Assembly (NCBI GenBank): GCA_964506115.1
Contig: CAZDKI010000003.1
Coordinates: forward strand, 40,627 to 104,626
DNA: 64,000 nucleotides
Reading direction: 5' to 3'
DNA from: an uncultured Candidatus Peribacteria bacterium
GTDB lineage: Bacteria > Patescibacteriota > Gracilibacteria > RBG-16-42-10
A program made the position numbers and the translations under genes. Shown one piece after another: positions 5,162-58,100 of this stretch. Each line of letters opens with the position of its first letter. Position 1 is the stretch's first letter. The notes beneath the pieces were generated by a model. That model did no database searches and was not told the origin of the DNA. It saw only the letters and a program-made list of their open reading frames with translations.

Positions 5162-5497
5162 CTAGAGCTCCATCATTTTCCGTTCAGCAAACTCTTTGGT
5201 TAACTTATAAATAAGCTCCTTGCTATCATCCTTGGCCACGGTTACAGGATGTCTATACTTACACTTCAAACACTCATGAATGATCTGGTAAGTCTTTTTT
5301 GCTGAATTATAAATCATATCCACCGGTTTCATCAGGGACTGGCAGGTACATTTGCGATCTCCTGGAAGCTTCAAATCAACATGGTAAGAATAGAGACAAT
5401 TAGGACAGTGATTCCGACAATAGCCACCACCACGGCGTGGGACCATCATGTGGCAATTTTGGCACTCAAAATCTTCATCCCGATGCGTTGTTTTCAT
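5162..5497 (-). CDS. RNHCP domain protein (Cys-rich, zinc-ribbon-like)
   Basis: 111 aa. Contains CQNCHMMVPRRGGGYCRNHCPNCLYSYHVD, the eponymous RNHCP motif with flanking CxxC pairs. Confidence 0.65.
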   Translation of the reverse strand: MKTTHRDEDFECQNCHMMVPRRGGGYCRNHCPNCLYSYHVDLKLPGDRKCTCQSLMKPVDMIYNSAKKTYQIIHECLKCKYRHPVTVAKDDSKELIYKLTKEFAERKMMEL

Positions 5498-5549
5498 GTA
5501 CTTATCGCTAAAGCTAGTTTACAATAAGAGTGTACCTTATTTTTCGGGC

Positions 5550-7952
5550 ATGTCATATGTGCTTTTTATCCTCGTTATAGTCCTTATTGGTGCAAGCATA
5601 CTCTTTGCTATTCGCCAGTATCATGCTGTTCAATCTGCACTACAGCTAGTCTTCTTACGTGTCAGTGTACCTAGAGCCGAAGATCCTAAGGATCATGAAC
5701 GTAGTAAAGACCGTGAAAAAGACTTCAAAGAAAGTATTAGTATCATGGAACAACTGCTTACCAACTTAGGCGGCATGATCAAGCGTAAGTGGTATCAGAT
5801 CTGGAAATATCCTGACACTATCACTTTTGAATGTGTCGTAGAAAAACATTTAATTTATTTTTACATTATTGTTCCTCAAGGATGGGAGACTGTCGTTGAG
5901 AAACAGCTTACTTCATATTATGCCGATGCCACCGTAGATATTGTAGACGAATACCCACTATTCCAAGCAAACGCTTACACTGAAACCGTACAGTTAGCAA
6001 TGAAAGAAGCTCATTATTTACCAATCAAAACCTACAATCAACTAGAATCAGATCCTCTCAATGCGATCACCAATGCTTTGAGTAAATTAGCGGAGAATGA
6101 AACAGCTAGTATTCAGATCTGCATGGCGCCACCTACTAAACGCACTCTTAAAAAGGGTAAGAAGAAAGCAAAAGATCTATTTCAAGGCAAATCAGGACCA
6201 AAGGGTATAGTCATACTACGCCCTTTCATCGCAATTTTTGATTTCTTTACCAATAGTGCAACTAGTACACCTAAAGAACCAAAACGGCTTACCCCACGTG
6301 AGGAAGAGCGGGTTAAACTTATCGAAGCAAAACTCAACCACAACAATTTCGCCACCAACATTCGTATTGTAGTAAGTAGTGGTGATAAAGAGGCCGCAAA
6401 GCTACAGATGAAAAATATTCTAGCTTCACTCAACCAATTTAGTAGCATCGACCTTAATAAAATGGAGGTAAAAAAATATTTAAACAAACAAAAAATTGAA
6501 AAGTATTTTTTATTGAGAAAGCTAACCCCTATGGTTCCTACTTTGACGCTAGGCACCGAAGAAATAGTGAGTCTCTTTCATGTTCCTAACACCCGCTTCA
6601 ACACAAGCCCCTCTATTTTTTGGCAGTCATTTAAGATTGCTCCAGCACCTACCGACCTGCCTAAAGATGGTATTTTATTAGGCTACAATGTCTATCGTGG
6701 TGAGGTTAAGGAAGTAAGATTGAAGCATAGCGATCGTTTCAGGCACTTCTACGTCATTGGTCAAACTGGTACAGGTAAATCAACCATCCTCCAAACGATG
6801 ATCCGTCAGGATTTACAATTAGGACATGGTTTCTGTGTCATTGATCCTCACGGAGAATTAATTGAGGATATCCTTCCTTTTATCCCAAAATCACGTGTGC
6901 AAGATGTGGTTTACTTTAATCCTGGAGATACTGAGCGTCCGATGGGACTCAACCTCTTGGAGGCCAATACACCTGAAGAAAAAGACTTTATCTCTACTGA
7001 AGCTTTGAACATTATGATCAAGCTCTATGGCGAAGAGATTTTCTCTCCACGTTTGCAAGATTATTTTCGTAATGGATGCCTGACCTTAATGGATGATCCG
7101 CAGGGAGGTTGTATTACCGATATCGTACGTTTATTCACAGATGAAGATTGGCAGACGTTCAAAGTATCCAAAGTCCAAAACCCAATTGTGAAATCGTTTT
7201 GGAGTAAACAAATGGCCATGACCGGGGCACGCGAAAAGCAAGAAATGATTCCGTATTTTGCTGCTAAATTTGGTGCTTTTATTACCAACACTTTGATGCG
7301 TAATATTTTGGGCCAACCAAAATCAGCCTTTGATATTGGAGACATCATGAACAATAAAAAGATTTTGTTAGTAAATCTCTGTAAAGGGCTAGTAGGAGAT
7401 TTCAATGCTAGCTTGCTTGGTATGATTATTGTAGCAAAACTCCAAGTAGCGGCTATGCGCCGAGTGTATGGGGAGAAAAGTGATTTCTTCTTATATATAG
7501 ATGAATTCCAGAACTTCGTCACCAATAGCGTAGAGGTCATTCTTTCTGAAGCACGTAAGTACCGGCTTGGTATGGTTATGGCTCATCAGTTCATCCCTCA
7601 ATTGGTTAGAAACAATAATGACACCAAGATTCGCGATGCGGTATTTGGTAATGTCGGCTCAATTTTGTCATACAAAATTGGTGTCGATAGTGCAGAGTTG
7701 ATTGGCAAAGAAATGGCACCAGTTTTCTCAGAACAAGATTTACTAAATATTGGTGACTTCAAAGCAGCCCTAAAACTTTCAGTAAATAATAAACCAACCA
7801 GACCTTTTACTCTCAATGTGATCAAACCTTGGGAGGTCAGTGGCCCGGGAAATAAAAAGCTAGCACAAGCGATCAAAGAACTATCTCGACTAAAATATGG
7901 AGCTCGCCGTGAATTTGTAAATCAAGAAATTCTCGCTCGTATTGGTGCTTAA
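5550..7952 (+). CDS. VirD4/TraD/TraG-like coupling-type P-loop ATPase with N-terminal TM anchor
   Basis: The track ORF starts at 5448 and would overlap the divergent RNHCP gene. The ATG at 5550 (MSYVLFILVIVLIGASILFAI, a TM helix) is the more plausible start. Walker A GQTGTGKST, Walker B FFLYIDEFQNF, and VIDPHGEL / MAHQFIPQL blocks typical of T4SS coupling/HerA-like ATPases. Confidence 0.7.
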   Translation: MSYVLFILVIVLIGASILFAIRQYHAVQSALQLVFLRVSVPRAEDPKDHERSKDREKDFKESISIMEQLLTNLGGMIKRKWYQIWKYPDTITFECVVEKHLIYFYIIVPQGWETVVEKQLTSYYADATVDIVDEYPLFQANAYTETVQLAMKEAHYLPIKTYNQLESDPLNAITNALSKLAENETASIQICMAPPTKRTLKKGKKKAKDLFQGKSGPKGIVILRPFIAIFDFFTNSATSTPKEPKRLTPREEERVKLIEAKLNHNNFATNIRIVVSSGDKEAAKLQMKNILASLNQFSSIDLNKMEVKKYLNKQKIEKYFLLRKLTPMVPTLTLGTEEIVSLFHVPNTRFNTSPSIFWQSFKIAPAPTDLPKDGILLGYNVYRGEVKEVRLKHSDRFRHFYVIGQTGTGKSTILQTMIRQDLQLGHGFCVIDPHGELIEDILPFIPKSRVQDVVYFNPGDTERPMGLNLLEANTPEEKDFISTEALNIMIKLYGEEIFSPRLQDYFRNGCLTLMDDPQGGCITDIVRLFTDEDWQTFKVSKVQNPIVKSFWSKQMAMTGAREKQEMIPYFAAKFGAFITNTLMRNILGQPKSAFDIGDIMNNKKILLVNLCKGLVGDFNASLLGMIIVAKLQVAAMRRVYGEKSDFFLYIDEFQNFVTNSVEVILSEARKYRLGMVMAHQFIPQLVRNNNDTKIRDAVFGNVGSILSYKIGVDSAELIGKEMAPVFSEQDLLNIGDFKAALKLSVNNKPTRPFTLNVIKPWEVSGPGNKKLAQAIKELSRLKYGARREFVNQEILARIGA

Positions 7953-10483: not shown

Positions 10484-10506
10484 TCAGATTTTTGATCAAG
10501 ACGCCT

Positions 10507-10544
10507 AAGAATTCCCAAAGGGTTTGTGCCTTAGGGAATTTTTA
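10507..10544 (+). terminator. possible intrinsic terminator after hup
   Basis: AATTCCC (10510-10516) pairs with GGGAATT (10534-10540) and is followed by a T run. The loop is long (17 nt), so this is only moderate. Confidence 0.35.
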
Positions 10545-10599
10545 GGTTAGGGACATATATTGCAAAATCTGCTATTGTTGAAAATCAAAATTATTATCA

Positions 10600-11277: not shown

Positions 11278-11305
11278 TTGCAATTGTAACTCTCTTCGTT
11301 ATAAT
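11278..11305 (+). promoter_or_regulatory. putative promoter of the tRNA-Gly/tRNA-Pro unit (TTGCAA-16-TATAAT)
   Basis: TTGCAA at 11278-11283, a 16-nt spacer and TATAAT at 11300-11305. The -10 element ends 12 nt before the tRNA-Gly 5' end. Confidence 0.5.
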
Positions 11306-11317
11306 CCTTCTGCCTTT

Positions 11318-11391
11318 GCGGGTATAGTATAGCGGTATTATGACTGCCTTCCAAGCAGTAGAGATGGGTTCAATTCCCATTACCCGCTCCA
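11318..11391 (+). tRNA. tRNA-Gly (anticodon UCC), CCA encoded
   Basis: Acceptor GCGGGTA/TACCCGC. Anticodon stem ACTGC/GCAGT with loop CTTCCAA (TCC). T arm ATGGG-TTCAATT-CCCAT. 3' TCCA. Confidence 0.9.
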
Positions 11392-11437
11392 CGAACGCAA
11401 TGCGTTCGAAGAATAGGTATAAGAATGAGAATAAGAC
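11392..11437 (+). repeat. tRNA 3' trailer module (CCA-abutting GC hairpin + AAGAAT(A/G)-type AT-rich repeats)
   Basis: CGAACGC-AAT-GCGTTCG perfect hairpin at 11392-11408, then AAGAATAGGTATAAGAATGAGAATAAG. Same layout as the trailers of tRNA-Pro and tRNA-Arg. Confidence 0.6.
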
Positions 11438-11478
11438 TTAAAACTTCCTTATTCAAATACTAATTCTCATTCAAACAT

Positions 11479-11555
11479 CGGGGTATGGCTCAGTTGGCTA
11501 GAGCGCCTGCTTTGGGAGCAGGAAGTCGCAGGTTCGAGTCCTGCTACCCCGACCA
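11479..11555 (+). tRNA. tRNA-Pro (anticodon UGG), CCA encoded
   Basis: Acceptor CGGGGTA/TACCCCG. D arm GCTC-AGTTGGCTA-GAGC. Anticodon stem CCTGC/GCAGG with loop TTTGGGA. T arm GCAGG-TTCGAGT-CCTGC. 3' ACCA. Confidence 0.92.
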
Positions 11556-11648
11556 CGATCGCTTATTCTAAAACTTATTCTCATTCTAATTCTAAGAATG
11601 CTATTTAATCGCGATCGAAGAATAAGTATCAGAATAAAAATAAGAAAC
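11556..11648 (+). repeat. tRNA 3' trailer module (homologous to the tRNA-Arg trailer)
   Basis: Starts with CGATCGC directly after CCA. The core ...TCATTCTAATTCTAAGAATGCTATTTAATCGCGATCGAAGAATAAG aligns with 57413-57475 (...TCTCAATCTTATTCTAAGACTGCTATTTGAGTGCGATCGAAGAATGAG). Confidence 0.65.
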
Positions 11649-11972: not shown

Positions 11973-12539
11973 CTACCTTGATTTATCGGAGGTCTGACTT
12001 ATTTGCTTCCGATAAATCAAGGTATCATAACCGTGTTTTACTTTGTCTTCTTCTTTTACTCCTAAAGTGCTTAAAAAATGCCATAGGTTGGCTAATTCGT
12101 TGTCAGTTCCAGACTCATTATCTACTAGTTTTTCCACCTCAACAAAAACACCTAAACCATCTACTTCATCGGCACAAATAGTGATCTGATCTAAATGATA
12201 TTCATGGCGTTTCTTCTTCACCTGCAAAGCAGGACTAAAACCAATAGCAGCCAGAATTTTTATCAATTCAGCAGCATTTTCAACTATTGTTTCATGCTCG
12301 ATACCAATTGATTCATTCTTGGGTTTCTGTTTCATGCCAAAAATAAATTGCCCATTCTGATCGCGAATACGCATGACGGGCATGCCAGGGATTAGTTCAC
12401 CATAGAGCATTCCCGTTGGAAGAAATATCGTATCAGATTGCATTAATTCCTTTTCCTTTTGCGCCCCCAGAGTCTCCAACTGTTTCAACAATTCGGCGTA
12501 AGAGCCATGAAAATATGCCTTTACTTCAATCTCTACCAT
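11973..12539 (-). CDS. CYTH domain protein (class IV adenylate cyclase / triphosphatase fold)
   Basis: 188 aa. Starts MVEIEVKAYF, the EIEVK motif that opens CYTH/CyaB proteins. Acidic beta-strand pattern throughout. Confidence 0.7.
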   Translation of the reverse strand: MVEIEVKAYFHGSYAELLKQLETLGAQKEKELMQSDTIFLPTGMLYGELIPGMPVMRIRDQNGQFIFGMKQKPKNESIGIEHETIVENAAELIKILAAIGFSPALQVKKKRHEYHLDQITICADEVDGLGVFVEVEKLVDNESGTDNELANLWHFLSTLGVKEEDKVKHGYDTLIYRKQISQTSDKSR

Positions 12540-13103: not shown

Positions 13104-15014
13104 ATGCAGAAATTAACTATCGGCATCGGAGCTGTAATCGCCACCACTATTATTGCAGGAATAGTCATTGTTCCCAATCTCGCTTCCTCTCAAACTCCGA
13201 CTGACTCACCTTCAGAAATTACTACAAGTACAGAGAGCATCACAGCCACAAGCGTAAAACTTTTGAAACCAGCAACAGCCCCTTCAAATAATCAACCAAT
13301 ACAGCTCAATTTGCGTGGGAAAATTGTGTCAGATGGCAATATTCGTTTAACTGCTACCACAGGAGCTACTATCAAATCTATTGCTGTCAAAAGAGGGGAT
13401 ACTGTACACAAAGGAGATGTATTAATGAACTTGGGCGGTAGTAAAGAAAACAAGCACCCACTAGAGATTGCTTATGAACAAGCGGTATTAAGCAAGCAAA
13501 ACATTGAAACTAGTTTAGCTAATGCTACCAGCTCTACCGGTATTGCTATTCGCCAAGCAGAGCAACAACGCATTGCTCTCAATATTTCGGTTAGTCAGCT
13601 CCAAAAAACACTTGAGTTGACTAGAAATGCCGGTAGCTTTGCTGTTCAGGGCGCCAATCTCGCTTTAAATAACCTGCAAAATACAGTCACAAGAACCCAA
13701 GATCTTCGTAATCTTTCTGGCAATTTAGCTAGCGTAAGTATTGAACAAGCGCAAGAGTTGGCACAACTTTCAATTCAGAATACATCAAGGTCATTGCTAG
13801 TCAGCCTACAAGGGACAGTAATCCCTTTATTAGAGGGCATTAAAAGCGTCAGTAGCAATAATAGCATCCGAGAAAATTTGGATGATGTTAAAAATATTGT
13901 CGATAAATTAGATGATTTCAAAGACGTTTCTGATCACAGAGTTCCCAGCGAGATCAATGATATTACTGATATCCTCTATGATCTGATGGATAGCATCGAA
14001 GATATTAGTATCAATGTCACTCGAATTGATACTGCTGCAGCTAAGCCTTTAGTCGATGCTTGGAGACAATTGAGCGGCACAGTCACCAGCTCAGTAGCTG
14101 TTTCAATTACTCAACTCTCCACCACGAGAAATCAAATCGAGAATGCTCCTACCAATAGGGATATCCAACTAGCAACACCTGACAATCAAATCAGTGCCAG
14201 CCAAGATCAACAACGTGTTCTAGAAATGGCTATTGCACAAGCTCAAAATGCTGGCGCCTTACAAGAACAAGCTATCAATGGTCAAATCCAAACTTTAGAA
14301 CAACAAAAATTAAGTGCTAATTTAGCAATTGAGGCGGCAAAAGCCGGAGCAAAAACTCAAAGAGATAGTATCCAAGGGCAGCTCAGTATCGCTGAGAAAC
14401 AATTAGAACAAGCACAGATTCAGCTGAGCCAACTAACTCTGATTGCTAGTATGGATGGTTATGTCGTAGATGTCCCTGTCAGCCTCAATGAAGATGTCAG
14501 TATTGGTCGTGAATTACTTACTATTTATGGTAGCAGACCAGATTTTATCCGTTTAAGTGTCTCTCCCAGTGATCGTGATCATATTCAGGTAGGGGATCAA
14601 TTAATGGTTAGCTTAAACAACAGTACTACTGAGATTCCTGCAATCATCGATAAAATTGCGGTTGTTAGTGACACTACTGGCAATATTCCAGTGGATTGTG
14701 TATTTGAAGCCGAAATTGTATTACCTATGGGCTTTGTTCCTGGAAGTAATGTTCAAGCTAGAACCACATTGACTACTAGTGATGCCCCCACTCAACCACA
14801 AAATCACTTTGTACCAGTGAGCGCGATTGTTATCGATGGTGGTCAGACCTATGTATGGCTCTACCAATCTGGGATAGTCACCAAAAAAGCAGTGACTGTG
14901 GGACCTAGTCAAAATGACCAGGTCAGTATCTTTGATCAACTTAATTGGAGTGAAGTCATAATTAATCCTAGTCCAGTACTAGAAGAAGGACAGGCAGTAA
15001 CTGTGACCAATTAG
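13104..15014 (+). CDS. efflux periplasmic adaptor (HlyD/MFP family) with a very long alpha-helical hairpin
   Basis: 636 aa. N-terminal TM anchor. Split lipoyl-like motif (ATIKSIAVKRGDTVHKGDVLMNL ... IASMDGYVVDVPVSLNEDVSIGRELLTIY) separated by about 330 aa of Q/L/A-rich coiled coil. Beta-barrel-like C-terminus. Confidence 0.8.
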   Translation: MQKLTIGIGAVIATTIIAGIVIVPNLASSQTPTDSPSEITTSTESITATSVKLLKPATAPSNNQPIQLNLRGKIVSDGNIRLTATTGATIKSIAVKRGDTVHKGDVLMNLGGSKENKHPLEIAYEQAVLSKQNIETSLANATSSTGIAIRQAEQQRIALNISVSQLQKTLELTRNAGSFAVQGANLALNNLQNTVTRTQDLRNLSGNLASVSIEQAQELAQLSIQNTSRSLLVSLQGTVIPLLEGIKSVSSNNSIRENLDDVKNIVDKLDDFKDVSDHRVPSEINDITDILYDLMDSIEDISINVTRIDTAAAKPLVDAWRQLSGTVTSSVAVSITQLSTTRNQIENAPTNRDIQLATPDNQISASQDQQRVLEMAIAQAQNAGALQEQAINGQIQTLEQQKLSANLAIEAAKAGAKTQRDSIQGQLSIAEKQLEQAQIQLSQLTLIASMDGYVVDVPVSLNEDVSIGRELLTIYGSRPDFIRLSVSPSDRDHIQVGDQLMVSLNNSTTEIPAIIDKIAVVSDTTGNIPVDCVFEAEIVLPMGFVPGSNVQARTTLTTSDAPTQPQNHFVPVSAIVIDGGQTYVWLYQSGIVTKKAVTVGPSQNDQVSIFDQLNWSEVIINPSPVLEEGQAVTVTN

Positions 15015-24295: not shown

Positions 24296-24852
24296 AGATC
24301 ATTCAGTTTCAACTCGCTGAAAAAACTCTAGTCATCAAAATTAAACGTCAAGCTTATCGTCGTAGTATTAAGCTACAGCATCAATCAGCTGAGTTTAGTG
24401 TCACGGTTCCTGTTGGAATCTCTCTTCAGCAGATTGAAGACTTTCTCCAAAGCCAAAAGAAATGGATGAGTAAAAGGTTAAGCAACCATCTAAAGAAGGA
24501 TATCTTACCGGAGTTGCCTTTTAGTGAAGATACCAAACGAGCAGCAAGACTCTTAGTAATCAGTCTCATTGAACGATACCAAGCTTTGTACCCATATACA
24601 TTCAAACGAATTACAATCAAAGATCTTCACAGCAAATGGGGGAGCTGCTCTGCTCAGAAAAATCTCAACTTTAATTACCGTATTATCGCCCTTCCAAGTG
24701 AACTTGCAGCATATCTAGTAGTACATGAGCTATGCCATCTGGCTGAGCTCAATCATTCAATTCGTTTTTGGCGCTTAGTAGCCAAAGCGTTTCCCAATTA
24801 CCAATCATTACGTAAGAAGCTGCACAATATTGATTTTGAGAAGGTAAGCTAA
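24274..24852 (+). CDS. YgjP-like (DUF45) zinc metallopeptidase
   Basis: 192 aa. WGSCSAQKNLNFNYRIIALPSELAAYLVVHELCHLAELNHSIRFW contains HExxH in the DUF45/M48-like context. Confidence 0.7.
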   Translation: MGRDSAIKIIQFQLAEKTLVIKIKRQAYRRSIKLQHQSAEFSVTVPVGISLQQIEDFLQSQKKWMSKRLSNHLKKDILPELPFSEDTKRAARLLVISLIERYQALYPYTFKRITIKDLHSKWGSCSAQKNLNFNYRIIALPSELAAYLVVHELCHLAELNHSIRFWRLVAKAFPNYQSLRKKLHNIDFEKVS

Positions 24853-26498
24853 AGTAAAGCTTGTTGGTAACAAGCCTCACACAAAACCAGTTCATCTTGA
24901 TACACCGTTTCTAATTGCATCCCGCACTGACTACATGATCGCTTCAGAGCTGGATTAATTTGAAGAATCTTGGATAGATTTTCGATTCGAACCAAAGGAG
25001 CAAGTCTAGGTATCGGTAGCTGAAACCGGCGATAGAAATCTAATTCTGGTTTAGTAATGCGATACTTTCGTTTAGTAACTTCACAAGTAAGCACCTGACT
25101 AAGGATAGTATCTTGAACATCTTCAATACGATCAGGAATCTCCGAAATTGAAGAGTCATCATTCTCGGTAGAATCTTTCCATTTATATCCCCGTTTCAGT
25201 GCCTCTTCACGACTGAGCGGAGCAAATTCATGAGCATATGACTCATTATAATAACGTGGCGACATCGAAGCGGGGAACAGTTCTCCATACTCATCGTGAA
25301 GGTTCATTTGTGTTTTGATTCTTGCTAATAGCTCATAATATTCTTCCTTGGAATACTGTTTATTCAAGATACAATATTCTTTCTGCTTGAGACCGACACA
25401 ACCAAAACAGTCATGACATCCCGCTGACATGTACCCACAATACTCCAAGTCATGCGTATTGCTGGTAGAGTTGAGACACCATTTCAGATTAGTGGAGTTG
25501 TTGGCGGCCACATTACAACTATAAATTTGTTCAGCATTGTTAACCGCAAAACCAGAACAATAAACATCTTTAGCTTTTACTACTCGGACTGAACACTCTA
25601 CATCCTGTGACTCTAAGACAAAAAAGCTATCCCGACAATTTTGTGATTGGTTAATGTAATTACCACTACAGTCTTCACTCTGGTTACCCTGCATAAACTT
25701 TCGAGCAATAGTTTTTCGTTTTTCTTCATAGCTAGCTAACTCCTGTAACCAATTACTATAGCTACCTAAATCTTTAGCTTTCAACTTCACTTCATATTCT
25801 TGTGGTGTACATGCTTTATTCTCAAAATAATATTCTTTACCACTCAAATTAGTGCATCCGTAACAATGCTTCAGATTTCTACAATTAAATAAGAAATATG
25901 AATCCTGACAATTACTACAATTTTCAGCAACTATCAGGTTATAACAACTTTGCACATTGACGCACTGATAACATAATTCTGAACTGAATACACTGATACA
26001 ATCAACTGAATCCTTCACTGAGTTGAGAAAACGACCGAAATAACAATCTTCACAACTAGTACAATTAAAGATTAAGTAACAATTCCGAGCATGTGTGACT
26101 GCATTTACATAATCACAATTTTCTAAGTCAGAAAGCAGCACATGACGACTTGGTAAGGGAACTTTATTAAACAAAGCGGTAAACTGATCAAAAAAAGACC
26201 GGGAGAAATCATAATCTTGACCAAAACTCTGGGGATCCCAACTATCACCAAAAAATATCTCAGGTGTATAGATCGGATGTCCTAATTCTGGAGGGAAATT
26301 GGTTAACAAGGTTTGTCCAGTCATAGAACACTTACCATTGTAAAGATACGTACCATTGTCAAAGCTAGTCACTCGACGAAGTCTTTCAATAGGAGAAATG
26401 GTAGGCAGAGGAATATCATGTTCCTCACAATACCTCAGCTCAGCATCTGAAATAACAAACTCCTTCCCAGAAAGTTTACATGTTTTGGTGATAGCCAT
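24849..26498 (-). CDS. cysteine-rich repeat protein, paralogue 1 of 3 (function unknown)
   Basis: 549 aa, about 34 Cys by my count. No signal peptide or TM segment. Aligns end-to-end with the products of 33737-35377 and 37672-39321. Confidence 0.8.
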   Translation of the reverse strand: MAITKTCKLSGKEFVISDAELRYCEEHDIPLPTISPIERLRRVTSFDNGTYLYNGKCSMTGQTLLTNFPPELGHPIYTPEIFFGDSWDPQSFGQDYDFSRSFFDQFTALFNKVPLPSRHVLLSDLENCDYVNAVTHARNCYLIFNCTSCEDCYFGRFLNSVKDSVDCISVFSSELCYQCVNVQSCYNLIVAENCSNCQDSYFLFNCRNLKHCYGCTNLSGKEYYFENKACTPQEYEVKLKAKDLGSYSNWLQELASYEEKRKTIARKFMQGNQSEDCSGNYINQSQNCRDSFFVLESQDVECSVRVVKAKDVYCSGFAVNNAEQIYSCNVAANNSTNLKWCLNSTSNTHDLEYCGYMSAGCHDCFGCVGLKQKEYCILNKQYSKEEYYELLARIKTQMNLHDEYGELFPASMSPRYYNESYAHEFAPLSREEALKRGYKWKDSTENDDSSISEIPDRIEDVQDTILSQVLTCEVTKRKYRITKPELDFYRRFQLPIPRLAPLVRIENLSKILQINPALKRSCSQCGMQLETVYQDELVLCEACYQQALL

Positions 26499-33736: not shown

Positions 33737-35377
33737 CTAACTCACCACCTGTTGGTAACATCCTTCACATAAGACAGGTCGTTCTGCTGGATTATACACT
33801 GACTCGATTGCTTTATGACAATTACTACAGGCAATATTTTTGATTTCTTCTACTCGAAAGATAGCCGCTCTTTCATGTAAGCGATTCAGTGGTGCCACAT
33901 GGGGGAGGGGAATATTGTTGTTTCGATAAAAACTCACTTCAAGTTTAATGAATCTGAAGGCTTTGCCACTCATCTCACATGTAAATGATTCACCCACTAT
34001 ACTCTCTGAAACATCCTTAATATTGCTTGGGATTGTTCTAGTTGCTGGAGAGGCCTCTGGGACTTCATCCCTCCAATCAAAACCTTCCTTGATTGCTTGT
34101 TCCTTAGTAAGTGGGAAAATAATAGCAGCATCACTTTGGTTGTAATAAACCTGAGACATTTGCAGTGGTAAATAATCTTGCCACTCGTTTTTCTCACTCA
34201 TTTTCTGTTTAATTGCTGCCACAATGCGCTCGTAATCTTCTTTTGAGTATTGCTTATTGAAGATACAGTACTGTTTCTTTTTGAGTCCAACACAACCAAA
34301 ACAGTCACTACAACCTTGAACACAGTATAAACAAAACTCTAGATTTTTACTGCCAATACATTCAATACAAAACTGTAAATTGTAGTTACCCACACCTGCA
34401 TGAGTATTGTAGAGCAATTCACCAGAAGTGTTATAAGCAGTAGCAAAACAATCCTTACATTTATTGGTACCAATACTATTTTCTACATCCTGTACTTCCA
34501 TGGCATGAAAGACATTATTAGCATTGCTACTATTATGGATATAGTTACCTCTGCAATTTTCATTGCTTTTACCTTGCATAAACTTTCTCGGTTGCTGCTT
34601 TTTAAACTCGTTAAATTTAGCCAATTCACTCATACGAGTTGCATAATCACCTAAATCTATTGCCCCCAAACGCTGCTCGTACTCGTCCTTGGTCAATTGC
34701 TCATTATACCAACAGTATTCTTTATTAGTGAGATTAGTACAGCCATAACAGTGCTTACAACTCTGACAAGACTCCAAGAAATAACTATCAGAACAGTGAT
34801 TGGCACTATCTACATGCTGCACATTGTAGCAGTGATCGATGTCAGTGCAGGCATAACACAGTTCACAGCCTTTAGCAGAAATAGTATCCAGGACATTCTT
34901 GCACTCAAAAATATTCCAACCAAACATACAATCTTCATTGAAGGTATTGGCAAAGGTCAAATAACAGTTTTTCAAGTTAGCACCACCATTCACATACTCA
35001 CTATTGAGAGTAGTAGAGCGAACAATAGTTAAATTAGGTAAAGGTACTTTTTTATAGAGACTCTCTAGCTGAGTCCAGAAAGATCCGCTCAAGTCATACT
35101 CCTGACCATAACTCAAAGGATCCCATTGTTCACTATTCCAAATATCATTGTCATAAATAGTAAAACCTTTGTCTGGAGCAATACAGCTCAAAATCGGCTT
35201 TTTGGTAAAAGCACAAGTGGTATTGTAGAGAAACGTACGATTACGAAAAGCTAGTACTCGCTTCAACCGCTCGTTAGGATGGATTGTAGGTAGTGGATAA
35301 CCACGATCACGACAATAATTAGCTTCACGATCAGTAATTACAAACTTTCTACCAGTTAATTTACAAATAGCATCCAT
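33737..35377 (-). CDS. cysteine-rich repeat protein, paralogue 2 of 3 (function unknown)
   Basis: 546 aa, collinear with paralogues 1 and 3. Its stop lies 6 nt upstream of the recO start on the same strand. Confidence 0.8.
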   Translation of the reverse strand: MDAICKLTGRKFVITDREANYCRDRGYPLPTIHPNERLKRVLAFRNRTFLYNTTCAFTKKPILSCIAPDKGFTIYDNDIWNSEQWDPLSYGQEYDLSGSFWTQLESLYKKVPLPNLTIVRSTTLNSEYVNGGANLKNCYLTFANTFNEDCMFGWNIFECKNVLDTISAKGCELCYACTDIDHCYNVQHVDSANHCSDSYFLESCQSCKHCYGCTNLTNKEYCWYNEQLTKDEYEQRLGAIDLGDYATRMSELAKFNEFKKQQPRKFMQGKSNENCRGNYIHNSSNANNVFHAMEVQDVENSIGTNKCKDCFATAYNTSGELLYNTHAGVGNYNLQFCIECIGSKNLEFCLYCVQGCSDCFGCVGLKKKQYCIFNKQYSKEDYERIVAAIKQKMSEKNEWQDYLPLQMSQVYYNQSDAAIIFPLTKEQAIKEGFDWRDEVPEASPATRTIPSNIKDVSESIVGESFTCEMSGKAFRFIKLEVSFYRNNNIPLPHVAPLNRLHERAAIFRVEEIKNIACSNCHKAIESVYNPAERPVLCEGCYQQVVS

Positions 35378-35519: not shown

Positions 35520-35629
35520 ATTCCTCTCCTAAATCTCAGTCTAAGTCTTTGGTCTTATCTCGGACAATATTGAAGTGGCAATCTTAGACTGAGACTAAGA
35601 TTGAGACTAAGCATCCCGCATACGCGAGA
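35520..35629 (-). repeat. tRNA-Gln 3' trailer module
   Basis: On the minus strand, CCA is followed by the hairpin CTCGC-GTAT-GCGGG. Next comes CTCAATCTTAGTCTCAGTCTAAGATTGCC, compare tRNA-Arg trailer CTCAATCTTATTCTAAGACTGCT. There is also a 12-bp inverted repeat, TCTCAGTCTAAG at 35534-35545 with CTTAGACTGAGA at 35583-35594. Confidence 0.55.
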
Positions 35630-35703
35630 TGGTTCGGGGATAGGGACTCGAACCCCAACTCACAGCTCCAAAGGCTGTTGTCCTACCATTAGACGATCCC
35701 CGA
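35630..35703 (-). tRNA. tRNA-Gln (anticodon UUG), CCA encoded
   Basis: Reverse complement: TCGGGGA TC GTCT AATGGTA GGAC A ACAGC CTTTGGA GCTGT GAGT TGGGG TTCGAGT CCCTA TCCCCGA A CCA. Confidence 0.9.
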
Positions 35704-37671: not shown

Positions 37672-39321
37672 ATGCCTGTCATTACCAAAACTTGTATCAC
37701 TAGTGGAAAAACATTCACTGTGTCTGAAGCAGAACAAAAGTATTGCAATGAACGAAATATTCCATTGCCACAACAGCATCCATTTGAACGGTTGAAGCAT
37801 ATAGCAAATTTCCGCAATCGCATTCATCTCTACAATACTACCTGTGCCAAGACAATGAAGCCGATTTTGAGCTGCTTTCCACCTGAGAAAAACTATACCG
37901 TTTATGATATCGAAGCCTGGAGTGGAGATGGCTGGGAAGCTACTGACTACGGTCAGAATTATGATCCAACCCGCTCTTTCTGGGATCAATATGAAGAACT
38001 CCTGAAAAAAGTACCACTGCCCAACTTGAATGTAGTCAGTGGCACAATGGAAAACAGTAATTATGTGAATGGGGCAATGAATCTCAAAAACTGTTACCTC
38101 TGTTTCTCAACATTGGATAGTGTTGATTGTATGTTTTGTTGGGCAACATTCAACTCCCAGAATATTGTTAATAGCATCAACTGTTACTTCAGCGAGATTG
38201 CTTACGACTGCCGTGATATTGAAAAATGTTATAATTGTTTTTATATCGAGAGCTGCCAAAACTGTAGTGATAGCTACTTCTTGTTTGGATGCCAAAGCTG
38301 TAAACACTGTTATGGTTGTATAAACCTTAATAATAAAGAATATTGTTGGTACAATGAACAATTGAGTAAGGATGAATATGAGAAACGTCTTGCTGAGATT
38401 AATTTAGGCAATATTCAGGTAGTAGGCGCTGAGAGAAGTAAATTTAAAGAGTTTTCTAAACAATTCCCTACCAAATATTATCGTGGGAAAAGTATTGAGA
38501 ATAGTGATGGTAACTACATAAGTAATTGTAAAGACACTCATAATGCCTTCTTTTGTACAGATTGTGTTGATATCGAGCACTCTTTAGTTTTATTAAAGAG
38601 TAAGGACTGCTTCGGTATCGTTTCTTCAAAGGCGTGTGAATTGACCTACAACTCTCAAAGCGGCATGAATTATAATTGCCAATATTGCAACGAAAGTCTG
38701 GTAGGTAATCGCAATTTAGCATGGTGCATGTTCACTAATGGTAGTACCGATTGTTTTGGTTGTGTCAGTCTGAAGAAAAAACAATATTGCATACTCAACA
38801 AACAATACTCTCAAGAAGAGTATTTCCAATTGGTAAAACAAATTAAACAAGCAATGATCGACAGTGGAGAATATGAAGATTTCTTTCCACGAAGATTAAG
38901 TCCATTCTACTACAACGAAAGTGATAGCATGATTTACTTCCCAGCTACTAAGGAAGAAGCAACCAAAAATGGATTTAGTTGGAAAGATGAAAATATATCG
39001 CTACAAGAGAGCAGCTACGTACCACCGGACGACATTTCAGCGGTTACAGATGATATTTTGCAGCAAACATTAATTTGTGTAAAAACAGGGAAAAAATATC
39101 GACTAACGAAACAAGAGTTAGATTTTTATCGCAGATTCAAAATACCAGTTCCCCGCATTGCTCCACTAGAACGAGTGAATAACTTTGCTCATCAAATGTT
39201 TGATATGAGAGAGCTAACCACTATTGCTTGCAGCCAATGTCAAAAATCCCTCACAAGCGTATACAACCCGGCTCAACAACAAGTACTTTGTGAAGAGTGT
39301 TTCCTAAAATCAGCCTTTTAA
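37672..39321 (+). CDS. cysteine-rich repeat protein, paralogue 3 of 3 (function unknown)
   Basis: 549 aa. Roughly half of positions are identical to paralogue 2 by eye over the N-terminal 240 aa, for example KKVPLPNL, NLKNCYL, CSDSYFL..CQSCKHCYGC.NL.NKEYCWYNEQL.KDEYE.RL. Confidence 0.8.
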   Translation: MPVITKTCITSGKTFTVSEAEQKYCNERNIPLPQQHPFERLKHIANFRNRIHLYNTTCAKTMKPILSCFPPEKNYTVYDIEAWSGDGWEATDYGQNYDPTRSFWDQYEELLKKVPLPNLNVVSGTMENSNYVNGAMNLKNCYLCFSTLDSVDCMFCWATFNSQNIVNSINCYFSEIAYDCRDIEKCYNCFYIESCQNCSDSYFLFGCQSCKHCYGCINLNNKEYCWYNEQLSKDEYEKRLAEINLGNIQVVGAERSKFKEFSKQFPTKYYRGKSIENSDGNYISNCKDTHNAFFCTDCVDIEHSLVLLKSKDCFGIVSSKACELTYNSQSGMNYNCQYCNESLVGNRNLAWCMFTNGSTDCFGCVSLKKKQYCILNKQYSQEEYFQLVKQIKQAMIDSGEYEDFFPRRLSPFYYNESDSMIYFPATKEEATKNGFSWKDENISLQESSYVPPDDISAVTDDILQQTLICVKTGKKYRLTKQELDFYRRFKIPVPRIAPLERVNNFAHQMFDMRELTTIACSQCQKSLTSVYNPAQQQVLCEECFLKSAF

Positions 39322-44347: not shown

Positions 44348-44524
44348 GATGAAATAATTTTTCGCATTCTAACAGACTCAAGCTGAAGACGTAAAGCTTT
44401 TCATCCAGCTCAAAGCTAAATTCTAAAATCTAGATTCCACACTTCACATCAAAATTGCTCCTGCTCACAAAATAGAGTAAAGTTGCGGCACGAAATTTCC
44501 CTCACAGCCCTTTATCTTCTTAAT

Positions 44525-47500
44525 ATGGCTACCCCCGAAAAAAAGTCCGCATCTAAGATAGAACCAAAGACCATCTTTGATCCTGTTCAAGTAAAACAGT
44601 CCTTCCCAGATCTTGAGAATGACATTTTAGATTTTTGGAAAAAAGACGATGTCTTCAAATTAGTACAAGACAAACGAACAGGTAGTAAACCGTTCATTTT
44701 CTACGAAGGTCCTCCAACTGCCAATGGCAAACCAGGAGTACACCATGTGATCGCTCGCGTATTCAAAGATGTAATTTTGCGATATAAAACCATGCAAGGC
44801 TTTTATATTGAACGTAAAGCCGGATGGGATACACATGGGCTACCAGTTGAGTTGCAGGTAGAAAAAGAATTAGGAATTTCAGGTAAGAAGCAAATTGAAG
44901 AATACGGTATCGAAGCCTTCAATAATAAATGTAAAGACTCAGTTCATAAGTTCACTCAAGCCTTTGAAGTGATGACCGAGCGTATCGGTTACTGGGTAGA
45001 TATGAAAAACCCGTATGTAACATACTCTCCCGATTATATCGAATCAGTATGGTGGTGTCTCAAACAAATTTGGGAAAAAGGTTTACTGTACCGTGATCTC
45101 AAAATTGTTCCTTATTGTTGTCGTTGTGGTACCCCACTTTCTAGTCATGAAGTCGCACAAGAGTATCAGACAGTAAAAGATATGTCTCTGACAGCTCTTT
45201 TCAAAATCATCGATCAAGCTAAATTTAGCAAGGATAGCGAGACTGTTTACTTTGCCGCTTGGACTACTACACCTTGGACCTTGGTAGGTAACCTCGCGCT
45301 CTGTGTCGGACCTGATATCGAGTATAGCCAAGTAAGAATAGATCAAAATACAGCAATCATCATCGCTACAGATCGTATTGCAGCTTACAATGATGTCCTG
45401 CCAAAAGATGAAGAGGGGAAACCACAGTACACCATTGAAGCTACGTACCGAGGCACCGATCTCGTCGACACTAGTTATGAAGCTCCTTGGAATTATTACA
45501 CAAGCGAAAAGAAAGGACATTATGTAGTAGCTGAACCATTTGTCACTACTACCGACGGTACTGGTATCGTTCATATTGCTCTCTATGGTGAGGATGATTA
45601 TCAAGTGATCCAAAAATATGACTTACCGAGACTGCAACATGTAGATAAGGAAGGCCGATTCATCGCTGGCAGCGGTCCATATAGTGGTCGTTACTTCAAA
45701 GAAGAAGGACTAGATGTGGAAGTACTCAAAGATTTGGCAGCACGAAACATGCTCCTCAAAAAAGAAAAATATGAGCACAACTATCCTCACTGTTGGAGAT
45801 GTAAAACACCACTGATTTATTTTGCCATCAGCTCTTGGTTTATTCGCATGTCACAATTGAGAGATGAATTGGTCAAAAACAACCAAGAGATCAATTGGCA
45901 TCCAGAACATATCAAAGAAGGACGATTCGGTAATTGGCTCAATGAAATTAGAGATTGGGCGGTGTCTCGCAATCGGTACTGGGGCACCCCATTACCGGTC
46001 TGGGAATGTCAGTCATGTCACAAGACCTTGTGTGTTGGCTCTATGATCGAACTTCAAAAAAAGAGCGGCCAGGATTTGCCAATCAACGACAAAGGGGAAC
46101 CAGACCTCCATCGTCCTTATATCGACAATATTATTATTGCCTGTGAATGTGGTGGCACTATGAAAAGAGTAGAAGAGGTAATTGACTGTTGGTTTGACTC
46201 CGGTGCCATGCCAGTCGCTCAAGTCCACTATCCATTCGATATCAAAGACCAAGAGTTCCAGGAACACTACTTCCCAGCGGATTATATCTGTGAAGCAATC
46301 GACCAAACTCGGGGTTGGTTCTATACATTATTAGCTGTCAGCACTGCTATTTGGAATAAAACCGCTTATAAAAATGTCATCTGTCTCGGCCATATCCTTG
46401 ATGATAAAGGGATCAAGATGAGTAAGTCTCAAGGCAACATCGTCGACCCAATGGAGGTAGCGGATAAACATGGAGCCGACGCATTGCGTTGGTATATGTT
46501 TAATGCTTCGCCCCCAGGTCAACCACGTAATTTCTCAATTAGCTTAGTTGAACAATCGCTACGTAAGTTCCAACTGACATTGTGGAATGTATACTCATTC
46601 TTCGTCACCTACGCTAACATTGATCAATTCCAACCTCAGAAATTCACCAAGGTAATTAGTGTCCAACACACTGAGTCAGAAAATATTCCTCTTGGTGTAG
46701 TCGCTAGTGACAAAGATCAAGTCTACCATCTCACTGAGAAAGGACATCGTGATGCTGAAGCATTGGCCCAAGAATTCAAACATAGTAGCCTCGATAAAAT
46801 CTTCGTTGCCCCCCTCAATCGCACTCGAGAAACAGCTGAAATTATTAGCCAATTCCACCAAGTACCTGTGATTGATGATGAACGCTTACGTGAGCTTAAC
46901 TTAGGAACATTTGACGGTAAATTGGCAGCTGATGTAGAAACATACTTAAGCAGCCTTACCAATCAATATGCGCAGAAATTTCCTGAAGGTGAATCATACC
47001 TAGATCTAGAAGAACGCGTCTTTGCTTTCTTGGATGAGATCAAAGAAAACTGCGCAGGTGAAACGATCCTGATCGTCGCTAATGGTATGGTAAAAAAAAT
47101 GATTGATAAATACTTCAATCACACACCATCAGATCAAGTAATTGCTAATAAATTTAGCCTTGGCAGTATCGATCGCTATGTGATGCCATGGAGTGAACAT
47201 AAACTCGATCGATGGATCCTTTCTGAACTCCATGCCATGGTCAAAGAAGTAGCAATTATGCTCGACAATTACCAAATCTGGGAATCTACCAACAAAATTG
47301 AGAAATTTGTTGACAATCTTTCCAACTGGTATGTACGTAGATCGCGCCGCCGCTTCTGGAAAGCAGAAAATGACCAGGACAAAAATGGTGCATACCAGAC
47401 TCTCTATCATGTACTGACCACTTTAGTAAAAGTAATTGCACCATTCGTTCCTTTTGTCAGTGAGCACATCTATCGCAACTTAGTAGGTAAAGAATCTGTG

Positions 47501-48280
47501 CATATGGCCAGCTTCCCTCGTAGCATAGATAGTTTCATCCGACCAGCACTCAATGAGGAAATGGCATTCATGCGTAATATCGTTAATTTAGGCCATGCTA
47601 TTCGTGCTAGTCAGAAATTGAAAACACGTCAACCGCTACAGTCAGCAACAGTTATTGCTCCTATGCGTTTGCAAGCTGAGGAACTCCAAGTGATTGCGGA
47701 AGAACTCAATGTCAAAACCGTAACCATGACTAGCCCCGAACAAGCGACTATTCAAAAAGGTATCAAACCAAAAGCAGCCATTATTGGCCCTAAATATGGC
47801 AATGATGTCCAAACAATTATGCAAGCTGCCCGTGATCATAATGTGACCTTCGAAGATAATGGCACTGTTACTGTGGCTGGCAAATTCACCTTAGCTCCAG
47901 ATGAGTTTGAGGTTGTTTACAAAACTGAACCAGGTATGAGCATCATGAGTGAAGGCAATATCGTAGTCACACTCGACACCAATCTCACGGATGAATTGGT
48001 ATACGAAGGATATGCTCGTGAAATCGTACGTGCCATCCAAGACATGCGTAAAGCAGCCAATTACCAAGTAGACAGCCGTATCAATGTCAGCCTCGAAGTA
48101 CTGAGTGAACCTGAATTAGCCCATAAAGTAATCACTACCTGTGGTTCTTATATTGCTCGTGAGACATTGGCCGACACCCTCAATGCGGCCAATATCATCC
48201 CTGATAGAGAAGAAAAGATCGCTGTAGACAAACTAGAATTAGCGATAAAGATCTGCCCAAGTCAGAAAAGCAATAGCTAA
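44525..48280 (+). CDS. ileS: isoleucine--tRNA ligase with inserted degenerate histidine-phosphatase-fold domain
   Basis: The ATG at 44525 (MATPEKK...) is preferred over the TTG at 44483. PPTANGKPGVHHV, the CP1/editing region, KMSKSQGN, and the anticodon-binding region LDRWILSEL ... NWYVRRSRRRFW. An extra ~170-aa domain is encoded at about 46684-47200. Confidence 0.9.
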   Translation: MATPEKKSASKIEPKTIFDPVQVKQSFPDLENDILDFWKKDDVFKLVQDKRTGSKPFIFYEGPPTANGKPGVHHVIARVFKDVILRYKTMQGFYIERKAGWDTHGLPVELQVEKELGISGKKQIEEYGIEAFNNKCKDSVHKFTQAFEVMTERIGYWVDMKNPYVTYSPDYIESVWWCLKQIWEKGLLYRDLKIVPYCCRCGTPLSSHEVAQEYQTVKDMSLTALFKIIDQAKFSKDSETVYFAAWTTTPWTLVGNLALCVGPDIEYSQVRIDQNTAIIIATDRIAAYNDVLPKDEEGKPQYTIEATYRGTDLVDTSYEAPWNYYTSEKKGHYVVAEPFVTTTDGTGIVHIALYGEDDYQVIQKYDLPRLQHVDKEGRFIAGSGPYSGRYFKEEGLDVEVLKDLAARNMLLKKEKYEHNYPHCWRCKTPLIYFAISSWFIRMSQLRDELVKNNQEINWHPEHIKEGRFGNWLNEIRDWAVSRNRYWGTPLPVWECQSCHKTLCVGSMIELQKKSGQDLPINDKGEPDLHRPYIDNIIIACECGGTMKRVEEVIDCWFDSGAMPVAQVHYPFDIKDQEFQEHYFPADYICEAIDQTRGWFYTLLAVSTAIWNKTAYKNVICLGHILDDKGIKMSKSQGNIVDPMEVADKHGADALRWYMFNASPPGQPRNFSISLVEQSLRKFQLTLWNVYSFFVTYANIDQFQPQKFTKVISVQHTESENIPLGVVASDKDQVYHLTEKGHRDAEALAQEFKHSSLDKIFVAPLNRTRETAEIISQFHQVPVIDDERLRELNLGTFDGKLAADVETYLSSLTNQYAQKFPEGESYLDLEERVFAFLDEIKENCAGETILIVANGMVKKMIDKYFNHTPSDQVIANKFSLGSIDRYVMPWSEHKLDRWILSELHAMVKEVAIMLDNYQIWESTNKIEKFVDNLSNWYVRRSRRRFWKAENDQDKNGAYQTLYHVLTTLVKVIAPFVPFVSEHIYRNLVGKESVHMASFPRSIDSFIRPALNEEMAFMRNIVNLGHAIRASQKLKTRQPLQSATVIAPMRLQAEELQVIAEELNVKTVTMTSPEQATIQKGIKPKAAIIGPKYGNDVQTIMQAARDHNVTFEDNGTVTVAGKFTLAPDEFEVVYKTEPGMSIMSEGNIVVTLDTNLTDELVYEGYAREIVRAIQDMRKAANYQVDSRINVSLEVLSEPELAHKVITTCGSYIARETLADTLNAANIIPDREEKIAVDKLELAIKICPSQKSNS

Positions 48281-51461: not shown

Positions 51462-51952
51462 GATTTACGTTTCTTTGCTGGAGTAGATTTCCGTGCTAAT
51501 GGTTTAGTAGATTTTGGTGGCAATTTTACAGGAACTGGTTTAGTCACCACAGGAGCACTCACTTTTTCAGTAACCATAGTTGCTGGCTTCATAGTACCCA
51601 CGGTAGCGGTCTCTAATACGACACCACCAGTAATATTTGCTGACAAGTTGTAAAGAAGCGCAAGCAATATGCCATAGAAAAAACCAACAACCATTACGAT
51701 GAGCGTCAGTAAGCAAGTAAGTAAAAGGATTTGCCAAGGATTGAGAAAGATTTCTTGTTGCATACTAGGATTGTCTACCATGGTGTTGAAAAGTACTGTC
51801 AAACCACCACGACCAAAGGTAATCGCCACAAAATCAAAAGCCAAACCAAGGATGAATACGACAAGACCCACATATACCGCATACACTTTTCCTAAGGAAA
51901 CAGGTTTGACTCGGACGAAGGCTTGAAGCATAAATGATGTGTAATAAATCAA
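51458..51952 (-). CDS. hypothetical membrane protein with K/P-rich C-terminal tail
   Basis: 164 aa with three hydrophobic segments. Tail KPVPVKLPPKSTKPLARKSTPAKKRKS. The exact start is uncertain. Confidence 0.45.
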   Translation of the reverse strand: MIYYTSFMLQAFVRVKPVSLGKVYAVYVGLVVFILGLAFDFVAITFGRGGLTVLFNTMVDNPSMQQEIFLNPWQILLLTCLLTLIVMVVGFFYGILLALLYNLSANITGGVVLETATVGTMKPATMVTEKVSAPVVTKPVPVKLPPKSTKPLARKSTPAKKRKS

Positions 51953-57480: not shown

Positions 57481-57491
57481 ATCTCCCTCAC

Positions 57492-58052: not shown

Positions 58053-58100
58053 ATATTTTTTAGCCTTGATTATGCTATAATATACAGAAAATGTAAATAC

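Follow-up and report, generated by a model that had tools for sequence, protein, structure and literature searches.

A folded trailer directly behind the encoded CCA of tRNA genes in a CPR (Patescibacteria) bacterium, a candidate signal for tRNA 3'-end formation

What role might a folded, repeat-rich sequence play when it stands directly behind the CCA of unrelated tRNA genes? The question is raised by a 64-kb stretch of DNA (contig CAZDKI010000003.1, hereafter the window) whose host is a bacterium belonging to the Candidate Phyla Radiation (CPR; Patescibacteria). The original prediction, made from the letters of the window, described a GC-rich helix and an AT-rich core behind three tRNA genes and offered three roles for this trailer: a processing or maturation signal, a co-transcribed small RNA, or a mobile or recombination site that targets tRNA genes. 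We compared the trailers of the window with those on relatives' contigs reached via neighbouring proteins. The element is undescribed and matches no catalogued RNA family. It probably helps to end or trim the tRNA transcript, and we tentatively favor, with a little less than even confidence, the view that it may be a module peculiar to a CPR clade which acts in cis, in the 3' trailer of primary tRNA transcripts, to serve 3'-end formation.

The window contains four tRNA genes (ARAGORN and Rfam), all of which encode their CCA, and the shared trailer is present behind each of them (Gly, Pro, Gln, and Arg). The claim that a common element occupies the same place behind unrelated tRNAs was therefore borne out, with Gln added to the tRNAs listed earlier and with further copies in the rest of the genome and in relatives. 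From the CCA outward, the trailer is ordered as a strand S1, an optional S1', a Y-arm, a core, S1'', the letters AAG, and an R-arm. S1 is a GC-rich strand of 6–10 nt which starts at +1 or already at C75/A76, and positions −2 to +1 relative to the CCA end always lie within one strand of a GC-rich helix. The partner of S1 is either S1', in a local hairpin, or a complement 50–80 nt away, and S1'' is the second complement of S1, distal to the core. The Y-arm is composed of 2–5 pyrimidine-rich units and the R-arm of purine-rich units complementary to it, while the core (consensus TCTAAGAnTGCyAyTT / TAAGAnTGCyAyTTnA) pairs back with its first unit onto the last Y unit. Together the two arms, tandem arrays of 6- or 7-nt units, make a long, weak A/U-rich hairpin around the AU-rich core.

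Three arrangements of these parts occur in the window. In type A, found behind tRNA-Gly(tcc) (11318–11391, + strand, with a promoter-like TTGCAA-16-TATAAT at 11278–11305), the S1 hairpin is followed by R-arm, loop and Y-arm. The hairpin CGAACGC-AAT-GCGTTCG (11392–11408, +) abuts the CCA, as had been read earlier, and continues into AAGAATAGG; a long imperfect hairpin follows (11410–11467, +), with the R-arm AAGAAT AGGTAT AAGAAT GAGAAT AAGA, a loop, and the Y-arm CTTATTC..TAATTC TCATTC, and stops 11 nt short of tRNA-Pro(tgg) (11479–11555, +). In type B, the trailer of this tRNA-Pro, S1 has no nearby partner: the strand CGATCGC (11556–11562, +) leads into a Y-arm of five hexamers (TTATTC TAAAAC TTATTC TCATTC TAATTC, 11563–11592, +) and the core TAAGAATGCTATTTAATC (11593–11610, +), whose TAAGAA folds back in a small apical hairpin with the last Y unit. 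The distal complement GCGATCG (S1'', 11611–11617, +) had been noticed about 55 nt downstream of S1; it is followed by AAGAATAAG, and the R-arm AAGAAT AAGTAT CAGAAT AAAAAT AAGAAA (11618–11647, +) is complementary to the Y-arm.

In type C, S1 has both nearby and distal partners. Behind tRNA-Arg(tcg) (57317–57391, +), the previously described hairpin CGATCGC-GACAG-GCGATCG (57392–57410, +) precedes the Y-arm CTCATTC TTTCTC TCAATC TTATTC (57417–57441, +), the core TAAGACTGCTATTTGAGT (57442–57459, +), the S1'' GCGATCG (57460–57466, +), and the R-arm AAGAAT GAGAAG TAATCT (57467–57484, +), and this trailer occupies the entire gap up to the stop codon of a convergent open reading frame (ORF, 57492–58121, −). 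Behind tRNA-Gln(ttg) (35630–35703, −), the S1 hairpin CAUCUCGC-GUAU-GCGGGAUG (35612–35631, −) takes in C75 and A76 of the CCA and is followed by the Y-arm CTTAGTC TCAATC TTAGTC TCAGTC (35587–35611, −), the core TAAGATTGCCACTTCAATATTGTC (35563–35586, −), the S1'' CGAGAT, complementary to the ATCTCG in S1 (35557–35562, −), and the R-arm AAGACC AAAGAC TTAGAC TGAGAT TTAGGA (35527–35556, −).

As claimed, an alignment joins the trailers of Pro and Arg; it extends over 45 nt with 87% identity (E = 1e-6 in a comparison inside the window), and all three occurrences of the exact core TCTAAGANTGC in the 64 kb lie inside tRNA trailers. The arms consist of the hexamer unit TnATTC / nAGAAT, with an autocorrelation peak at lag 6 (z = 4.0–4.9), and in-phase tandem hexamers are found six times in the window, against 0.9 expected, with five of the six in trailers. 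The mutually complementary AT-rich words of the original prediction are indeed pairing arms, but what were taken for heptamers are overlapping hexamers.

The folding check that had been proposed came out in favor of structure: all four trailers fold better than shuffled sequences (z = −5.8 for Gly at 11389–11478, −2.6 for Pro, −2.2 for Arg, and −3.8 for Gln), and z ranges from −1.7 to −5.8 across most copies, including those of relatives. The S1 hairpins have 5–10 bp. The arm words covary (CTTATTC/GAATAAG, CTTAGTC/GACTAAG, TTCCT/AGGA), the Gln words CTTAGTC/GACTAAG and CTCAGTC/GACTGAG being compensating versions, and more than 10 different helix sequences are found at the same place, including CGAACGC, CGATCGC, CAUCUCGC, ACGAUUCCGC, AUGAUCGC, GCUCGC, GGUCA, and UCGCC. 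RNAalifold, run on seven trailers, recovered a 6-bp apical hairpin as its sole structure; it misses the arms, and the Y:R pairing yields no formal covariation statistic, because unit insertions and deletions destroy the register.

How strictly, then, is the trailer tied to tRNA 3' ends? When 18 trailers were searched by BLAST (blastn-short) against 174 kb of lineage DNA, all significant matches were other tRNA trailers. No copy was found by BLAST in 75 kb of further lineage DNA without tRNAs (43 kb of it from GCA_016207805.1), a negative control consisting of relatives' contigs reached through paralogous proteins that brings the BLAST total to 249 kb, nor did a short-word search of the window with its four trailers find any copy away from tRNA genes. 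The covariance-model scan that the original prediction had recommended gave the same picture, with every copy found at a tRNA 3' end, the opposite of the missing enrichment that was to refute the prediction. The model (R1, built from seven type B/C trailers and searched over 532 kb on both strands) reached E < 0.01 at tRNA trailers alone, including a Gly trailer outside its training set; the best non-tRNA match had E = 0.4, and the weak matches (E = 1.6–8) include four trailers from other genomes.

Further copies were found in run X1, which covers the host genome at ~25x depth. Six more contigs of its assembly (23.7–25.5x) match the Pro core region and carry four different R-arm continuations; three of the six begin aligning at S1, with the upstream consensus ...CCACGATCGC..., and one reads CCACGATCGCGGTTAGCGATCG. 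One of these contigs may be the Arg locus, so that at least five more copies exist elsewhere in the host genome. The X1 copies with visible upstream sequence all start directly after CCA, the start of the trailer is fixed at the CCA within 3 nt, and no orthologous tRNA without the element was seen in the lineage DNA compared.

The related genomes carry the labels Peribacteria, Abawacabacteria, or Gracilibacteria, the closest RodA homologues being labelled Gracilibacteria and Abawacabacteria, and DNA of the window is present in wastewater and activated-sludge metagenomes. A look-up of the exact RodA protein of the window gave no record. Trailers of relatives were taken from loci L010 and L048 (Gly, Pro), L054 and L055 (Gln), L062/L063 and L064/L065 (Arg), L014 and L056 (both GCA_016207805.1; Pro, Gly, Gln), L016 (Leu, Val), and L018 (GCA_964512325.1; Val, Pro, Gly). 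A scan of genome collections with the core pattern gave 11 matches, among which L010, labelled uncultured Candidatus Peribacteria, is the one true ortholog; the other 10 come from unrelated taxa, have no tRNA nearby and are at chance level, as are both matches of a viral scan. A metagenome scan anchored on the 3' half of tRNA-Pro returned 35 loci, of which L048 is the sole relative and the rest were used as outgroups. In these outgroup tRNA-Pro loci (e.g., L050, L025, L041), ordinary hairpin-plus-U-run terminators stand in the trailer's place.

A helix or inverted repeat at the CCA is present in 20 of 20 trailers of the window and its relatives, from about seven related genomes, and 16 of the 20 have the full arm architecture with words that differ per genome; the exceptions are three L018 trailers of another shared type and the minimal Gln trailer of L055. 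The ordered architecture S1, Y, core, S1'', R was found in five genomes, and it is kept while the sequence is replaced in genomes whose RodA is just 72–78% identical to that of the window. For example, S1 in GCA_016207805.1 is CGAGCTCGC/GCGAGCTC or GAGGTC/GACCTC and the units are heptamers (TTCCTnn / nAGGAnn, lag 7), whereas S1 in L064 is GAAGCTCGC/GCGAGCTCC. Within one genome, unrelated tRNAs carry a common trailer version; the Pro and Gln trailers of GCA_016207805.1, for instance, agree at 97% over 36 nt.

The helix at the CCA is maintained through compensatory changes. The Gln hairpin is CAUCUCGC/GCGGGAUG in the window and CAUCUCAC/GUGGGAUG in L054, a compensatory replacement of G-C by A-U. 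In the L018 trailers the CCA itself is paired, as CCAUCC:GGAUGG behind Val and Gly and as CCAACC:GGUUGG behind Pro, again a compensatory pair. These three trailers (14421–14487, 14225–14346, and 390–535 for Val, Pro, and Gly) share CCA(U/A)CCU(G/A)CGCU..GAAGCUUCGG(A/U)UGGCGGGGCCA. A tRNA-Gln gene in L056 (2745–2755) reads ...GAA-CA-CGAGCTCGC, with CA in place of CCA before the trailer; either the assembly is wrong here or the CCA of this tRNA has to be repaired.

At the level of sequence the trailers behave differently. Compared with L010 and L048, the window is 92% identical in the upstream ORF, 96–98% in the promoter/leader and in the downstream intergenic DNA, and 99–100% in the tRNAs, but 72% in the trailers, and 52% in the Gly trailer of L048. 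The word "conserved" in the original prediction thus applies to position, architecture, S1 and core but not to the arms. The differences are mostly insertions or deletions of whole units, with S1 and core constant. Three units (18 nt) of the Pro Y-arm are absent in L010 and L048; a 6-nt insertion in the Pro R-arm (TATCAC, behind 11626) is found in L010 and segregates in run X5; and the Arg trailer of L062 has lost the 13-nt proximal hairpin half, by which type C becomes type B, while its R-arm has 12 nt more. The Pro trailers of L048 and L010 are 98% identical, although the Gly trailer of L048 is another one altogether. In these alignments, the trailer is fixed in place and shape and is the fastest-changing part of the locus in sequence. 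The likeness of copies within a genome would be due either to gene conversion or to a common reader.

The transcriptional setting of the trailers bears on what they might do. Each tRNA unit has its own −10/−35-like promoter site, and three of the trailers stand at the end of their units: those of Pro and Gln before co-directional protein genes, and that of Arg facing a convergent gene. There is a hairpin at the unit's end, but no U-run (~5 or more U within 8 nt) behind any of the four trailers, where a terminator scan lists no site; the earlier remark that these are not classical intrinsic terminators holds for the window. No significant structure that could be a separate terminator was found just beyond the trailers. 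The sole trailer with a U-tract is the Leu trailer of L016, in which a second hairpin is followed by UUUUUU, a canonical terminator. Canonical hairpin-plus-U-run terminators stand behind protein genes of the window (after 28590 and 53972), and near-perfect hairpins of 14–19 bp without U-run occur at 10503–10546, after the HU gene, and at 11975–12013, between convergent genes; since both occur, the host genome seems to use two kinds of gene-end structure. A 169-nt metatranscriptome contig comprises a 10-nt leader, tRNA-Gly, and 82 nt of a trailer like those of GCA_016207805.1, and this one low-depth contig from a relative hints that trailers are transcribed together with the tRNA.

Of the three roles first suggested, the best fit is with a signal for processing or termination, since compensatory changes have preserved the helix at the CCA. 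We hypothesize that the tRNA promoter would read through the trailer, and that the CCA-abutting helix would mark the junction at which an endonuclease makes the mature CCA-3'OH, the likeliest candidate being an RNase Z of the kind that in Thermotoga maritima and methanomicrobial archaea cuts after the encoded CCA. The long Y:R hairpin and the AU-rich core might act as a stop without U-tract, as a pause, or as an entry site for RNase III or RNase Y/E-type enzymes, and the Y:R hairpin could also shield a following gene from the strong promoter of the tRNA and set co-transcribed tRNAs such as Gly and Pro apart. Selection would act on pairing and position while arm sequences drift by whole-unit slippage, and likeness within a genome would come about by gene conversion or by co-evolution with a reading factor. 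In 11 of 18 trailers, from genomes with different S1 words, the CCA is directly followed by CGA, which may be a determinant for the cutting enzyme.

The RNase Z of T. maritima cuts directly after an encoded CCA. Neither RNase Z nor the minimal protein-only RNase P (HARP) is known to need a trailer helix. RNase Z also cuts directly after the encoded CCA in methanomicrobial archaea (PMC7479834), and HARP trims 3' trailers as well (PMC12217051). Through either enzyme, a precursor that encodes its CCA and carries a structured trailer could reach its mature end; no candidate 3'-processing enzyme of these kinds is encoded in the window.

Several observations weigh against a signal for 3'-end formation, or limit the form it could take. 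A stable hairpin at the CCA would impede exonucleolytic trimming, and the model therefore needs an endonuclease. The window's trailers have no U-run, and canonical terminators do occur elsewhere in the window, which weakens the case for termination by the trailer; the Gly trailer, which lies between two probably co-transcribed tRNAs, cannot be a full terminator. The S1:S1'' pairing crosses Y:R and, in most copies tested, has a deficit of 4–20 kcal/mol against the nested fold. The two strands, sense and antisense, fold almost equally well (−506 vs −489 kcal/mol summed, the sense strand being favored in 11 of 17 copies), which leaves room for a role at the DNA level. As would be expected of a repeat under weak constraint, the trailers outpace the non-coding DNA around them in divergence, and in RNA runs coverage was limited to tRNA bodies, with reads common to other bacteria.

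If the processing or termination reading is right, it would matter beyond this locus. CPR bacteria have very small genomes and a reduced set of RNases, and are mostly uncultured. To our knowledge, how they make RNA ends is essentially unknown. A signal on every tRNA gene whose shape is kept while its sequence is replaced would be a handle on RNA-end formation in these bacteria, and the reading predicts cleavage at the junction of CCA and helix and a partner enzyme in the same genomes. It is conceivable, though we doubt it, that this CPR clade has a tRNA 3'-end system of its own, in which a nuclease or termination factor, either dedicated or re-specialised, recognises the helix that abuts or includes the encoded CCA along with the repeat-built hairpin and its conserved loop motif; such a factor would co-evolve with the trailers in each genome, hence one version per genome and another in relatives, and no earlier signal for 3' processing or termination that is both tRNA-specific and genome-wide would have been described in bacteria. 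On the practical side, the element is a marker of tRNA 3' ends in these genomes and accounts for assembly breaks there, and its unit-length polymorphism could serve as a strain marker.

An unlikely alternative is a selfish or recombination-driven palindromic repeat that has been spread or homogenised among tRNA 3' flanks and is tolerated there, its structure being a by-product of inverted-repeat DNA and template switching rather than an RNA function. Families such as REP/BIME/REPIN, Correia, and ERIC are repetitive extragenic palindromes or small repeats resembling miniature inverted-repeat transposable elements (MITEs), and the trailers are like them in being imperfect palindromes of ~40–120 nt in gene 3' flanks that are alike within a genome, differ from one genome to another, and turn over quickly. 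Words are indeed common within and different between genomes (CGATCGC and the core in the window; other words in GCA_016207805.1 and L018), and the replaced Gly trailer of L048 beside its nearly unchanged Pro trailer, the whole-unit changes in the arms, the rapid divergence relative to the flanks and the similar folding of both strands are all what such a repeat would produce. However, the trailers differ from these families in being found behind tRNAs only, with no dispersed copies in the 249 kb searched by BLAST or the 532 kb searched with the covariance model, in a start locked to the CCA, and in a length that varies by unit slippage instead of a fixed unit. Nor were an orthologous tRNA without the element, target-site duplications, an empty site, a constant internal sequence, or, within the 64-kb window, an integrase or transposase gene (including RAYT-like genes) seen, and the architecture persists among relatives despite the replaced sequence. 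For the mobile or recombination site of the original prediction, the sharing of sequence within a genome is the sole point in favor: no integrase or transposase nearby, repeated tRNA 3' segment, empty site, or copy off tRNAs was found. Even if the trailer were only a selfish repeat, it would be an unusual one, strictly specific for tRNA 3' ends.

The near-equal folding of the two strands also fits a site that works as DNA, with S1 palindromes and periodic arms as the target of a nucleoid or insulator protein or of a recombinase, or as the source of cruciforms where tRNA genes are highly transcribed; we consider this improbable. Several S1 words contain 6-bp palindromes (CGATCG, GAGCTC, and, in L018, AAGCTT), two to three per trailer, and CGATCG is enriched in the window (17 observed vs 4.8 expected; e.g., at 47170, 47206, 52218, and 52446). 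CGATCG is also enriched in coding DNA, since just five of these 17 sites fall in tRNA trailers. The non-palindromic S1 words CGAACGC, ATCTCG, GAGGTC, and CTGCGCT, by contrast, keep only their complementarity, which argues for pairing rather than a repeated binding word; moreover, unit length varies by genome between 6 and 7 nt, G-U pairs are tolerated in the stems, and the window showed neither an integrase nor a tRNA segment repeated in the manner of an att site. In particular, the last 22 nt of each tRNA are unique there (up to 3 mismatches allowed), and an att site of an integrative element in a tRNA gene was rejected since tRNA 3' segments are unrepeated in the window and the neighbouring genes are housekeeping genes (in the window L19, RodA, HU, GyrB, RecO, AlaRS, IleRS, UvrABC, and L25).

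RNAs derived from trailers have a precedent in the 3'ETS-type sponges of Escherichia coli. The trailer could likewise be freed by tRNA processing as a stable, trans-acting small RNA, for which we see a slim chance. Paralogous trailers have kept the core TCTAAGAnTGCyAyTT, which is single-stranded and has stable hairpins on either side, and in Nanoarchaeum equitans a C/D-box small RNA lies directly 3' of a tRNA in a dicistron from which release by RNase Z was proposed (PMC3491384). On the other hand, the trailers have no Rfam match, and they turn over rapidly with a core that differs or is absent in Gly-type and L018-type trailers, which is a poor fit with a trans-acting RNA that has defined targets. 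In the window, only the tRNA matches themselves passed the Rfam gathering score, and E-value scans of three trailer regions gave generic miRNA-like hairpins at 11–24 bits, against cut-offs of 31–100 bits.

Slimmer still is the chance that the trailers are functionless mutational by-products, gene-end hairpins expanded by slippage whose likeness is a chance convergence of AT-rich repeats: unit insertions and deletions are observed and the U-run-less hairpins at 10503–10546 and 11975–12013 show that other gene ends of the window have long hairpins, but those share no sequence with the trailers, and the Pro–Arg likeness, the confinement of the exact core to trailers, the further copies in the genome and the ordered architecture in five genomes all speak against it.

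Returning to a processing or termination signal, how does it compare with what is known behind tRNA genes? In its presumed action the element comes closest to a terminator or processing hairpin at that place, and in its evolution to REP-type repeats. According to Mohanty and Kushner, Rho-independent terminators reportedly stand directly behind tRNA genes, such as monocistronic tRNA genes of E. coli. The trailers resemble these in having a stable hairpin at or near the encoded CCA and at the end of a short unit, which must be removed for maturation. They differ in that those of the window are without a U-tract, in the two-part design with a distal S1 complement, in the arms of 6- or 7-nt tandem units and the sequence common to unrelated tRNAs, and in that a trailer also sits between two probably co-transcribed tRNAs. 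By analogy, the nearest published parallel would be a palindrome of Methanopyrus kandleri, CGTTA-N9-TAACG, which follows roughly half of the tRNA genes at a distance of ~10 bp and was guessed to be a 3'-maturation signal (PMC5217627). Both are lineage-specific palindromic motifs at a fixed distance behind unrelated tRNAs; the palindrome, however, is archaeal, short, single, and 10 bp off, whereas the trailer abuts the CCA, has repeat arms and a core, and shows no sequence similarity to it. Full-text literature searches returned nothing on tRNA trailers or terminators in CPR bacteria.

Other candidate explanations were tried and rejected. Cyanobacteria have the repeat HIP1 (GCGATCGC) and heptamer repeats known as STRR, which the trailers recall by the word CGATCGC/GCGATCG and by short tandem units in intergenic DNA. 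Unlike STRR, the trailer units are hexamers in complementary arms and are found behind tRNAs only; GCGATCGC occurs once in the 64 kb vs 0.4 expected, and the relatives are CPR bacteria. A Y-arm that serves as a Rho-loading site and sets internal apart from terminal tRNAs is contradicted by the internal Gly trailer of GCA_016207805.1, which has the Y-then-R order of the terminal type. The idea that the S1 hairpin is a model substrate for RNase P found no support, with no 3' RCCA after the hairpin and unfavourable −1/+1 nucleotides.

Some observations in the window are independent of the trailers. An isoleucyl-tRNA-synthetase-like class I enzyme of 1265 aa (44483–48280, +) has a histidine-phosphatase domain (PF00300) inserted at residues 748–901, and the same architecture was called in L062 and L064. 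A family of proteins of ~546–569 aa has three copies in the window (24849–26498, −; 33737–35377, −; 37672–39321, +), none with a Pfam match, forms tandem arrays of 4–8 copies in the Abawacabacteria genome GCA_016207805.1 (L056 4956–11641; L058), and has thousands of homologues in CPR metagenomes. A 12-bp perfect hairpin with AAGCTT in its arms (51349–51398) lies inside the 3' end of uvrC (z = −5.96 for 51315–51440), in a region that overlaps a convergent ORF (51458–51952). Lastly, a gene for an RNHCP-domain protein (5162–5497, −) adjoins that of a HerA/TrwB-like ATPase with DUF8128 (5448–7952, +), and the synteny of this pair is kept in L014, L016, and L018.

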